64,000 bases of DNA from a virus. Lineage: Duplodnaviria; Heunggongvirae; Uroviricota; Caudoviricetes. Positions 52,195-54,595 of this stretch are shown piece after piece. The notes below the pieces were generated by a model. The model saw only the letters and a list, made by a program, of their open reading frames with translations. It did not search any database and was not told where the DNA came from. The stretch is from the IMG/VR virus record IMGVR_UViG_2690316311_000019. One strand, 5' to 3'. Positions within the stretch are counted from its first letter, which is position 1. Every line of letters starts with the position of its first letter. The translations under genes were made by a program, and so were the position numbers.

Positions 52195-52391
52195 ATGTGT
52201 AAAAAACGACTGAAAGAAAAGCGGTGGTCCAGACGCCGACAAAAGCACGAACTCGCAAACAAACGCCAAAGTTGGCAATGGCACGCGCTTTTCACGAAAA
52301 GAACACCCCGAGATATTGCGTTCGCTGGTGGGAAAACATTCCTGACCCACCTGAAGGCGCAATACATCAGGTTTTAAGCAGAGGAAAGACT

Positions 52392-53069
52392 ATGAATAAC
52401 ATGACAACGAAAGAGCTTTTGACGGCACTTCCAAAATACAAAAGCCATAAAACAGTTCGCGCCTCAAAAATCAAAGATATCGAAATTATCGCCCTAATGG
52501 ATGTGGTCCTTTTTTGCAACATCGAAGTCGTTGAGCCAGAAGGGGTAAAAGTCCATGTTGATAAAATATTTTTGCAAAAACACCGACCAGAAATTGGCGG
52601 ATATCTGGTCGCTTATGAGGACGGATCTCTGTCCTATTCGCCAGAAAAAACATTTGAAGAAGGCTTTAGTCGGACTAACGACTTCTTCGAAAATGGGGTA
52701 TCGCTCAGCATTGAAGGTCACAATGGGGTGACATTCATTACAGCCAGGGACGTAACTATTTCTGCTGGCGGTATCGCTACTCTACAAGAAGAAATCGACC
52801 TTGAAGCAGCCGACTTTTCTGACGCGCTGATGTGGCTGAAGGATGGCAAGAAAGTTGCCCGACGCGGGTGGAACGGCGAAAACCAATTCTGCTGGCTGGT
52901 TCCTGAAGGACAGTACCCGGCACGAATGGAAGCCATTAAGGGATATTTCCCCGGCGACCTCGTTCCGTATGGTGCTTATTTCGCCTTAAAAAATGCACAA
53001 GGTGTAGTTGTTCCGTGGGTTCCTTCTGTAGGCGACTTACTGGCATGTGACTGGTTTGTAGTGGAGTGA
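52392..53069 (+). CDS. Two-domain protein with C-terminal DUF2829 / Tad2-like domain (candidate anti-defence sponge)
   Basis: C-terminus ALMWLKDGKKVARRGWNGENQFCWLV...GDLLACDWFVVE; start chosen at RBS GAGGAAAG. Confidence 0.4.
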   Translation: MNNMTTKELLTALPKYKSHKTVRASKIKDIEIIALMDVVLFCNIEVVEPEGVKVHVDKIFLQKHRPEIGGYLVAYEDGSLSYSPEKTFEEGFSRTNDFFENGVSLSIEGHNGVTFITARDVTISAGGIATLQEEIDLEAADFSDALMWLKDGKKVARRGWNGENQFCWLVPEGQYPARMEAIKGYFPGDLVPYGAYFALKNAQGVVVPWVPSVGDLLACDWFVVE

Positions 53070-53075
53070 TTTAAC

Positions 53076-53858
53076 GTGGAAAATACTAAAGCAATTCAAT
53101 ACCGCCTGCGTAATGGTCAGAGTGTCGAAGTGACCATCAATAATGATGGTGTGCCTGGCGAAAAGGTTTCGATCTCTGATCTGGCTATCGAAAAAACCAT
53201 CATGTGCCACCTTGGCTTTACTGAAGAAGTGAGCAAAAAGCATGGTGTAGCAATCTGGAGCGCAATGGATACTGGTATGCGCAGATTCATTACTGCTCGT
53301 ACCCCAGGGATGACCATGATGGACCTCATGCAGATTGCGCCGCTGTTTGAATGTGAGCCTTTAGATGTATTCAGCAATCCAGCTATCTGCCAGCAGCTAT
53401 ATGGTGAGATGAAACTCGCGGTTACCCCCATTGTGCTGCATGAAGGATCGCTTGCTGGTGTGTGGAAAGTGGAGCGTATTTCAAGCTACATGCCTTTCCA
53501 TGTCAACGGCGTAATCACTGGTGAAAATCAACCTGTTTCCGTTATAAAGTCAGACCTCAAGCGCGCAATTCTTGAAGCAAGTTGTCGAGTTGTCGGCCTG
53601 GGCAAACAGTCTTATGTTTCCTTCCCGGCTGGCCCTGAAGGCCCGGCAGAAATTCTGATTATGGATGCCGATCTGCTCTGGCAAATACAGTTTCTGATTG
53701 GCAAAAGCATCATCCGCGCTGAAGAACTCGATCAGTACATTACCTGCACGATGACGGATGAAGTCAAAAGTGTGGCTATAGCCAATGCCCGGAACCTATG
53801 TCGTGCTGCATTAACAGAACTGCAAGAAAACACCACGGAAGAAGTGGAAAGTGATTAA
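53076..53858 (+). CDS. Hypothetical protein
   Basis: 260-aa ORF followed by strong terminator. Confidence 0.4.
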   Translation: MENTKAIQYRLRNGQSVEVTINNDGVPGEKVSISDLAIEKTIMCHLGFTEEVSKKHGVAIWSAMDTGMRRFITARTPGMTMMDLMQIAPLFECEPLDVFSNPAICQQLYGEMKLAVTPIVLHEGSLAGVWKVERISSYMPFHVNGVITGENQPVSVIKSDLKRAILEASCRVVGLGKQSYVSFPAGPEGPAEILIMDADLLWQIQFLIGKSIIRAEELDQYITCTMTDEVKSVAIANARNLCRAALTELQENTTEEVESD

Positions 53859-53861
53859 AAA

Positions 53862-53893
53862 GAACCCGCCAATTGGCGGGTTCTTTATTTATT
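53862..53893 (+). terminator. Rho-independent terminator (GAACCCGCC-AATT-GGCGGGTTC + T-rich)
   Basis: 9-bp perfect stem. Confidence 0.7.
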
Positions 53894-54104
53894 GAATTAG
53901 CATTCAACTCCCGATTGTTATAGCGAACACTATGTAACAGAATAATATTATTAACATTTTAGTAATAAGTTGATTATTCATCTTCTGTATTCGCAAAGCG
54001 TAAGTATTGCTCATAGTTTCTTATTCCAGTACATTGTGATTCGTTGAGGCAAAAGAATAGTGGCAATTCTACTGGCAATAAACTCAAGTAAGAGGTTGTA
54101 AACA

Positions 54105-54392
54105 ATGGAAAAACTGAACAATTTCTTAGACAAAATATCCACCACAAACACTCGCGCAGGCCACACTATTACCCGCATAGCTAAGCTAAGCGATGCGGGT
54201 GTCAGTGATGACGTAATCGCACTTCAACTGTCCAGTAACAGTGCAAATGGCTTCCGATATACAGCAGATGAAATAAAAGCGTATAAGAAGCTCCACAATG
54301 ATGTAAAAACTAAAGTGGGAATTACATCCAAACAAACAAAAGCATTAATCAAAGATCAAGAGCTGACTTTTGTTGCATTGCCTCAAAACTAA
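54105..54392 (+). CDS. Hypothetical protein in AT-rich islet
   Basis: 95-aa ORF; flanked by long AT-rich sequence and a downstream hairpin. Confidence 0.35.
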   Translation: MEKLNNFLDKISTTNTRAGHTITRIAKLSDAGVSDDVIALQLSSNSANGFRYTADEIKAYKKLHNDVKTKVGITSKQTKALIKDQELTFVALPQN

Positions 54393-54595
54393 ATTTGTTT
54401 AAAGCTATAGCTAACAAAGAGTTATAAGAGCGATAGTGATAAATTTATCATTGTCGCTCTTATAACCTTGTTAAAGATAAGAATATAACCCAAAAGATAT
54501 ACATGGGTTATTAAGGCCATAATTATCAGGCAAATAACATGAAGTCGTCTATGTGATGGATGAAATTTGAACAATCAATTCTATGCCAATTCCTG

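Follow-up and report, generated by a model that had tools for sequence, protein, structure and literature searches.

The IMG/VR virus record IMGVR_UViG_2690316311_000019 (Caudoviricetes) was analyzed over a stretch of 64,000 nucleotides (nt), referred to below as the window, and the block studied here extends from ssb to hxr. Its first open reading frame (ORF), named ORF1, encodes a protein of 225 amino acids (aa) that on balance is probably an early-expressed sponge for immune signals, acting through a C-terminal Tad2-like domain. The functions assigned to the ORF1 block are drawn from homology, predicted structure and gene context. The element is a P1-like phage-plasmid, as positions 51700-54900 match plasmid NZ_CP038378.1 (99.8 kb; E. 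coli O157:H7 F1273) at 100% identity and Escherichia phage vB_EcoM-Ro157c2YLVW, a Punavirus, at 99.8%. ORF1 differs from the canonical single-domain Tad2 proteins of ~90 aa in its length and in a 135-aa N-terminal module that resembles the phage L decoration protein Dec. The parts of the gene are the following.

52392-53069, + strand: ORF1, 225 aa, with a Dec-like OB domain, a stalk-like segment and a Tad2-like sponge domain
52392-52676, + strand: ORF1 aa 1-95, OB-fold domain with homology to the OB fold by which phage L Dec binds the capsid
52677-52796, + strand: ORF1 aa 96-135, four short predicted beta strands, aligned by MAFFT to the beta-helix stalk at the C-terminus of Dec
52797-53069, + strand: ORF1 aa 136-225, Tad2-like (DUF2829) domain with a hypervariable beta2-beta3 insert at aa ~171-199

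The Tad2-Like Domain

An earlier reading of this DNA without database searches (the sequence-only reading) had placed the end of ORF1 in the DUF2829 family that includes Tad2, fused to an N-terminal extension of about 140 aa. The assignment holds by Pfam profile, by comparison with the sequences of solved structures and by predicted fold, and the extension is real, a module of 135 aa. Residues 141-224 match the Pfam family PF11195 ‘Tad2-like’ with an E-value of 1.6e-22 and 80.2 bits against a gathering cut-off of 25, over profile positions 2-73 of 73, and the C-terminal end of the protein reads ...KDGKKVARRGWNGENQFCWLV...GDLLACDWFVVE. In a phmmer search against PDB sequences, ORF1 finds ModTad2 (9eib) as its best match (E 6e-20), and the Tad2-like domain alone reaches E ~6e-21 against the same protein (9eib, 8v3e); HgmTad2/AcrIIA7 (8kbi), SPO1 Tad2 (8sme) and SptTad2 are further matches. 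Judged by these scores, the similarity to Tad2 is far beyond chance. An AlphaFold2 monomer model built on 45 homologues, with a mean predicted local distance difference test score (pLDDT) of 75, gives most of the domain a pLDDT of 82-92 and predicts the Tad2 fold, i.e., an N-terminal helix, an antiparallel sheet and a helical insert between beta2 and beta3.

In SPO1 Tad2, 1''-3' gcADPR is held by W25, N26, W73, S76, T78 and D79, with the equivalents W21, N22, G23, W87, S90, T92 and D93 in HgmTad2. Mapping from these two proteins gives W160, N161, G162, W209, S212, G214 and D215 as the counterparts in ORF1, so that five of the six SPO1 residues are kept and T78 is replaced by G214. Across the alignment of the 45 homologues, W160, W209 and D215 are invariant and S212 is nearly so. 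ORF1 shares with SPO1 Tad2 (8SME) and HgmTad2/AcrIIA7 (8KBI), both founding members of PF11195, the fold and the gcADPR-pocket residues except the Thr. These two are small stand-alone proteins, and the insert of HgmTad2, which is longer by 17 residues, binds cGG/cGAMP.

Over the Tad2 core, ORF1 is 45% identical to ModTad2 (1 gap column), 44% to HgmTad2 (17 gap columns) and 36% to SPO1 Tad2. ModTad2, an 89-aa single-domain tetramer from a Myroides odoratus prophage that binds His-ADPR and cUMP/cCMP (PDB 9EIB, 8V3E), is the nearest solved relative, mainly because its beta2-beta3 insert has the same length; in comparison with it, ORF1 carries 135 extra N-terminal residues and a Gly in place of a Ser. 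An identity of 45% is too distant for ligand specificity to be transferred to ORF1. The placement of ORF1 in a clade specific for His-ADPR was considered and rejected, as its identities to ModTad2 (45%) and HgmTad2 (44%) hardly differ. Ligands vary within the Tad2 family, from 3'cADPR (type I Thoeris) and His-ADPR (type II) to N7-cADPR (type IV), and a second pocket, built from the insert, holds cUMP/cCMP (Pycsar) or cGG/cGAMP (CBASS). Our best guess for the ORF1 ligand is a Thoeris signal of the ADP-ribose (ADPR) type, and a second specificity may come from the variable insert.

The presence of Tad2 in P1 and D6 phage-plasmids has already been reported, and the core of this finding is not new. 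In RefSeq the gene is named ‘DUF2829 domain-containing protein’, and in a 2025 survey DefenseFinder matches to ‘Tad2 AcrIIA7’ were found in 56% of P1-like and 93% of D6-like phage-plasmids (bioRxiv 10.1101/2025.09.12.675607).

Early Expression and Absence From P1

Upstream of ORF1 lie the following features.

51670-51686, + strand: C1 repressor operator Op21/Ossb, overlapping the ssb promoters, with one mismatch to the C1 operator consensus
51706-52194, + strand: ssb (Pfam SSB, E 7e-40), with a DNA identity of 96-98% to P1 ssb
52195-52391, + strand: ssb-ORF1 spacer, 98% identical to P1, in frame with ORF1 and open from the GTG at 52224

The operator at 51670-51686 is identical to the one annotated for P1 (NC_005856). 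In a pattern scan, no promoter-like or terminator-like site was found on the + strand of the spacer (52195-52391), and no terminator-like site on the + strand between ssb and 53859. The P1 late-promoter pattern (LPlyz) matched exactly only at LPlyz itself; the other matches were no more than chance would give (8 against 6 expected), with none upstream of ORF1. From P1 annotation and these scans we infer that ssb, ORF1 and isaA form one C1-repressed early transcription unit. Such a unit would suit a protein needed before a defense signal builds up, and it speaks against a late structural role.

The ATG of ORF1 at 52392 is preceded by a GAGG Shine-Dalgarno sequence 7-8 nt upstream. The next gene, ORF2 (an isaA homologue), starts 7 nt past the ORF1 stop with GGAG ahead of it, and is apparently translationally coupled to ORF1. 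All features located by the sequence-only reading are present at their positions, and 52224, where it began the block, is a GTG in frame with and upstream of the ORF1 ATG. This GTG is unlikely to be the true start, given that its ribosome-binding site is weak and gene callers use 52392. An open leader of 56 codons is expected by chance about 7% of the time.

DNA homology to P1 runs up to 52395, at the ORF1 ATG, and is back at 53080, the second codon of ORF2; what P1 is missing is thus precisely the coding sequence of ORF1. In P1, the ribosome-binding site and ATG of ORF1 are joined straight to isaA, and gene callers start IsaA there (264 aa). The GenBank entry of P1 gives an IsaA of 320 aa from an upstream GTG, 168 nt before the gene-caller ATG (P1 locus L001, 3025-3195). 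The leader 52224-52391 is 98% conserved between the two elements and is in frame with ORF1 here and with isaA in P1. The annotated start of P1 IsaA is probably too far upstream, that GTG not being the real start.

Of 5,426 complete E. coli genomes, 213 contain ORF1 DNA; plasmids account for 213 of its 220 matching places. ORF1 is an accessory gene, cleanly absent from P1 and almost always plasmid-borne.

Homologues, Alleles and Architectures

The 144 matches to ORF1 come almost all from Enterobacterales and lie on contigs of ~90-100 kb; the exact protein (P0001) stands for a cluster of 453 member sequences. Conservation across the 45 aligned sequences is highest in the alpha1-beta2 segment of the Tad2 domain (mean pairwise identity 0.77) and lowest in the beta2-beta3 insert (0.30), which has at least three alleles among P1-like elements; this variability suggests a second pocket that varies from one allele to the next. 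Many combinations of OB-domain, middle-segment and insert alleles are found, two alleles of the middle segment being reassorted among homologues, and this mosaic points to intragenic recombination, as is typical of arms-race genes.

Near-identical Tad2 domains also occur in other architectures, namely behind a dUTPase (dUTPase-Tad2, P0056, 241 aa), in front of Sequestin (Tad2-Sequestin, PF21825), and in a protein with a phage tail-fiber repeat N-terminal to OB-Tad2 (P0023). The form found in phage D6 consists of the middle segment and Tad2, without the OB domain, in 146 aa. In D6 (L004, 2085-3817), as in D6-like phage-plasmids, the Tad2-like gene lies between dut and an isaA homologue (50% identical). 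Since this pair sits at a different site from that in P1-like elements, the order of a Tad2-like gene followed by isaA recurs in two genomic contexts. The recurrent pairing hints at a functional link between IsaA and the sponge.

In Escherichia phage RCS47 (FO818745; 15495-15950 and ~25.6 kb), an insertion of ~10 kb with inverted-repeat borders and a transposase interrupts the ORF1 homologue near aa 152, and the halves carry the annotation ‘conserved protein of unknown function, part 1 / part 2’. The Tad2-like gene of RCS47 is inactivated.

Proposed Mode of Action

ORF1 would be transcribed with ssb from the C1-repressed ssb promoters, and would hence be made at the onset of lytic growth. Its C-terminal 90 aa are predicted to adopt the Tad2 fold and, by analogy with solved Tad2 proteins, to oligomerize, so that a TIR signal derived from ADP-ribose would be enclosed between protomers via the conserved W-N-G loop and the W...S..D segment. 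With the signal sequestered, the Thoeris effector would never be activated. The Dec-like OB-plus-stalk module may serve as a chassis for oligomerization or scaffolding, or as a second ligand-binding head.

Several points weigh against this proposal. The Thr that contacts the adenine (T78 in SPO1 Tad2, T92 in HgmTad2) is Gly214 in ORF1, and Ser in ModTad2. Some of the Tad2 homologues tested fail against Thoeris, and ModTad2 itself failed against type I. Tad2 sponges are tetramers and Dec forms a trimer via its stalk, so the stalk-like segment of ORF1, were it to trimerize, could prevent formation of the canonical pocket. The linker and the insert of ORF1 are modeled at low confidence (pLDDT 42-56), and its co-transcription with ssb is read from P1 annotation and pattern scans. 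Moreover, in the screen of 84 sponge proteins by Hadary et al. (2025), proteins with an additional PF21825 or ‘6E3C’ domain were removed, and the Dec-like-Tad2 fusion class of ORF1 is among those excluded.

The Tad2-like domain could instead act as an anti-CRISPR of the AcrIIA7 type or in some other non-sponge role, or the gene could be neutral, decaying cargo, and any of these would be very surprising. The name AcrIIA7 is attached to the family in PDB 8kbi and 9kzr and in DefenseFinder. To our knowledge, however, E. coli carries no type II CRISPR-Cas system, and the anti-Cas9 activity of HgmTad2 was not reproduced in a published re-test. Decay would be in line with a gene that is dispensable, as its absence from P1 indicates, and that is interrupted in RCS47; intact conserved copies are nevertheless widespread, as the size of the ORF1 cluster attests, and their pocket residues are invariant, which argues against it.

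The Dec-Like OB and Stalk-Like Module

In the AlphaFold2 monomer model, residues ~12-95 of ORF1 form an OB-type barrel at pLDDT 83-93, and residues 96-135 are predicted, at low confidence (pLDDT 48-56), as four short strands. A HMMER scan with aa 1-139 returns at least 2,493 cluster representatives at E<=1e-3, many of which are stand-alone proteins of 85-100 aa with the common motif LPxYxCHKxVxAxKI...KHxPxVGGYxVxYEDGYxSYSPAKAFEEGYT. H19, K20, H64, Y71, Y75, D77, E89 and Y92 are near-invariant; ORF1 is off consensus at two conserved aromatics (Y79 to Ser, Y92 to Phe). No Pfam model covers the family, which corresponds to PHROGs 11049, 872 and 9467, each of unknown function. In one metagenomic protein of 2,604 aa (P0151), the second half of the OB domain (aa 51-101) is matched eight times; this may be a repeat-containing surface protein with the same GGY..Y.DG motif.

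A profile of 40 members of the OB family matches Dec at E 3.1e-4 over the whole OB fold (KPEVGGYL...AFEANYT). Full-length Dec aligns to ORF1 aa 1-135 by MAFFT with 23% identity, the stalk region included, where ...TITLTGAVTGSA... of ORF1 stands against ...TFITARDVTISA... of Dec. On this alignment, the N-terminal 135 aa of ORF1 appear to be a full-length homologue of phage L Dec. Dec (PDB 6E3C) and ORF1 share the OB fold and the motif KPEVGGYL...AFE.NYT, and the strands predicted for ORF1 aa 96-135 align with the C-terminal strands of Dec. Dec is a late structural protein, encoded beside terminase genes, and binds the capsid as a trimer; ORF1, by contrast, has an early operon context, outside the late/structural gene context of Dec-type proteins, and a sponge domain attached.

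The resemblance would allow ORF1 to be a virion protein, i.e., a Dec-like trimer held on the capsid by its OB domain, with DUF2829 at the tip of the stalk as an adhesin or stabilizer and without any sequestration. The alignment of the first 135 aa with full-length Dec, stalk motif included, and the tail-fiber repeat N-terminal to the P0023 homologue agree with such a role. The gene, however, lies in the C1-controlled early ssb operon with no late-promoter match, and is missing from P1 and, by the Tad2 count of the survey cited above, from 44% of P1-like elements. In addition, the D6 form has no OB domain, OB homologues in Lastavirus lie in early operons beside repressor genes, the OB domain is fused to cytoplasmic sponge domains, and the Tad2 pocket residues are strongly conserved. 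The early context, the absence from P1, the OB-less D6 form and the exclusively sponge-type fusion partners make a capsid-decoration role very unlikely.

Fusion Partners of the OB Domain

Fusions were counted in the best 147 OB representatives and in 80 viral (IMG/VR) loci. Among the 147 representatives, the only recurrent Pfam partners are PF21825 Sequestin (7), PF13876 Acb4 (5) and PF11195 Tad2 (5), and the Acb2/Tad1 hairpin domain appears as a partner once. Tal et al. (2025, bioRxiv 10.1101/2025.07.12.664507) identify PF13876 as the Acb4 family of sponges. In the same study, Sequestin, a sponge for 3'cADPR, was discovered through its fusion to Tad2 and Acb4, and an Acb4-Tad2 fusion was found to block both Thoeris and CBASS (bioRxiv 10.1101/2025.07.12.664507). 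Of the OB-containing ORFs in the 80 IMG/VR loci, 58 have fewer than 150 aa; fusions to Tad2, Acb4 or Sequestin number 11, and 3 more ORFs follow a separate sponge gene. One locus (L059, IMG/VR contig 3300024966_000042, 465-1711) has a Tad2-Sequestin gene followed 27 nt later by an OB-Acb4 gene, and this pair is a small cluster of sponge-domain genes. In Lastavirus, the third gene of an operon beside the repressor switch encodes OB-Tad2 in SopranoGao and OB-Sequestin in vB_KpnP_ZX1, in an otherwise identical gene order.

The Acb4-Tad2 protein of Pasteurella phage Pm86 and the Tad2-Sequestin fusions resemble ORF1 in that Tad2 is joined to a small phage module, and some relatives of ORF1 bear Sequestin (PF21825) at the C-terminus. 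In the former two cases, however, both halves are known sponges, whereas the partner in ORF1 is an uncharacterized OB domain.

A tentative extension of the sponge proposal is that the Dec-like OB domain is itself a signal-binding family, in which case ORF1 would neutralize two different immune signals and thousands of stand-alone OB homologues of ~90 aa would be independent anti-defense proteins. We regard this as possible but doubtful. The family is large (the 2,493 representatives above) and often stand-alone, and its recurrent Pfam partners among the 147 representatives are solely known sponge families, four in number when the single Acb2/Tad1 case is included. In the viral loci, the 11 of 80 fused ORFs and the 3 directly behind a separate sponge gene point the same way, as does Lastavirus, where the OB domain stays constant and Tad2 and Sequestin are swapped behind it. 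The near-invariant polar and aromatic OB residues resemble a binding site, beyond a mere fold core, and Sequestin itself came to light through fusion to known sponges. On the other side, the ligand, pocket and oligomer of the OB domain are purely putative, and ORF1 has lost two of the conserved aromatics, at Y79 and Y92. The D6 protein, with the stalk-like segment and Tad2 but no OB domain, implies that the OB domain is dispensable for whatever Tad2 does, and a role of the OB domain as a chassis for solubility or oligomerization would yield the same fusion pattern. It is likewise conceivable, with similar reservations, that the OB domain represents a fifth sponge family or an obligate sponge chassis, that ORF1 and its relatives (those of Lastavirus and those fused to Acb4 or Sequestin) are modular sponges with several heads, and that Dec is a structural offshoot of the same fold. 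The preferred reading of ORF1 remains a sponge acting through its Tad2 domain.

The Remainder of the Block

Downstream of ORF1, the block contains the following features.

53076-53858, + strand: ORF2, isaA homologue, 260 aa, GTG start, 95% identical to P1 IsaA
53859-53886: GC-rich terminator hairpin with a 12-bp stem (7 GC pairs) and then a T-run
53881-54638: AT-rich insertion, 34% GC, bounded by the homology breakpoints with P1 and SJ46
54105-54392, + strand: ORF3, 95 aa, orphan, with an AAGAGG Shine-Dalgarno sequence
54421-54466: AT-rich palindrome of 46 bp between ORF3 and hxr (self inverted repeat, 91% over 46 bp)
54596-54916, - strand: hxr, 106 aa, PHROG 2292, 3' end unlike P1 and SJ46

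Three ORFs foreign to P1 had been suggested for this region. ORF1 and ORF3 are indeed absent from P1. ORF2, however, is P1 backbone and not new cargo, as it is 95% identical over 261 aa to residues 60-320 of P1 IsaA (gp017); it also occupies the same position before the terminator and hxr. ORF2 belongs to PHROG 2326 (function unknown) and has no match in Pfam, NCBIfam or PADLOC, and a profile search against the PDB was also empty. Its homologue set is narrow, limited to P1-like and D6-like elements, and the AlphaFold2 model on a 7-sequence alignment is unusable (mean pLDDT 39.7).

The strong terminator, AT-rich stretch and 95-aa ORF of the sequence-only reading were all found, at 53859-53886, 53887-54104 (31% GC against 48% across the window) and 54105-54392. 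A second gap in homology to P1 spans 53859-54640 (0.78 kb) in place of the IS1 and isaB of P1, with homology back at 54641. Salmonella phage SJ46 has ORF1 and isaA, and its equivalent terminator hairpin directly abuts the end of hxr; compared with SJ46, the stretch 53881-54638 that includes ORF3 is therefore an insertion in its own right. The AT-rich insertion has replaced the last ~15 codons of hxr (54596-54640), and Hxr has 106 aa here against 102 aa in P1.

ORF3 has no match in Pfam, PHROGs, the PDB, NCBIfam or PADLOC, and a search of 5.8 billion proteins returned near-identical copies and one metagenomic protein of 54% identity, on a 0.9-kb contig without informative neighbors. The existence of this homologue makes ORF3 probably a real gene. 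Of the 5,426 E. coli genomes, 25 have the ORF3 segment, each time on a plasmid of ~90-100 kb. A sigma-70 scan of the AT-rich stretch found nothing on the + strand, and no promoter can thus be proposed for ORF3, which is an orphan gene in a separately acquired AT-rich insertion. Just downstream of hxr, a TTG-initiated ORF of 50 codons (54422-54574, - strand) overlaps the 46-bp palindrome and would encode a hypothetical, very hydrophobic peptide (…VICLIIMALITHVYLLGYILIF…). An Rfam scan of 51600-54950 (E<=1) gave sub-threshold matches only, driven by two hairpins.

The ssb-hxr interval coincides with RD-2 ‘isaA-IS1-isaB’, a variable hot spot already published for P1-like plasmids; for pTZ20_1P, ‘one orf interrupting isaA, one replacing isaB’ was described (PMC6906374). 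In RD-2, P1 has IS1 and isaB and lacks ORF1 and ORF3, whereas ORF1 and ORF3 are present here. The P1 genes ssb, isaA, isaB and hxr were non-essential by CRISPR interference (PMC10695390). The vicinity of the dar antirestriction operon had been taken as a plausible place for counter-defense cargo. The dar operon does follow beyond hxr and ddrB, both on the minus strand, but this adds little, as ORF1 is part of the early ssb operon under C1 control, which lies on the other strand.

Conclusions and Outlook

Shiga-toxin-producing and multidrug-resistant E. coli and Salmonella commonly carry P1-like phage-plasmids, whose anti-defense cargo helps to set which hosts allow entry and persistence. The Tad2 call as such adds little, as it is already in annotation pipelines and in the 2025 survey. 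Since P1 is a natural null allele of ORF1, a Tad2-type sponge can readily be tested under isogenic conditions in a classical E. coli phage.

In the searchable literature, no description was found of the Dec-like identity of the N-terminal module of ORF1, nor of the size of the OB family or its near-exclusive association with sponge domains. Through the OB domain, a capsid-decoration fold of solved structure is connected with very many small phage proteins. Its fusion to sponges is a signal of the same kind as that which led to Sequestin, in a class that the main functional screen left out. Should the OB domain bind a signal, it would constitute a new and abundant counter-defense family.

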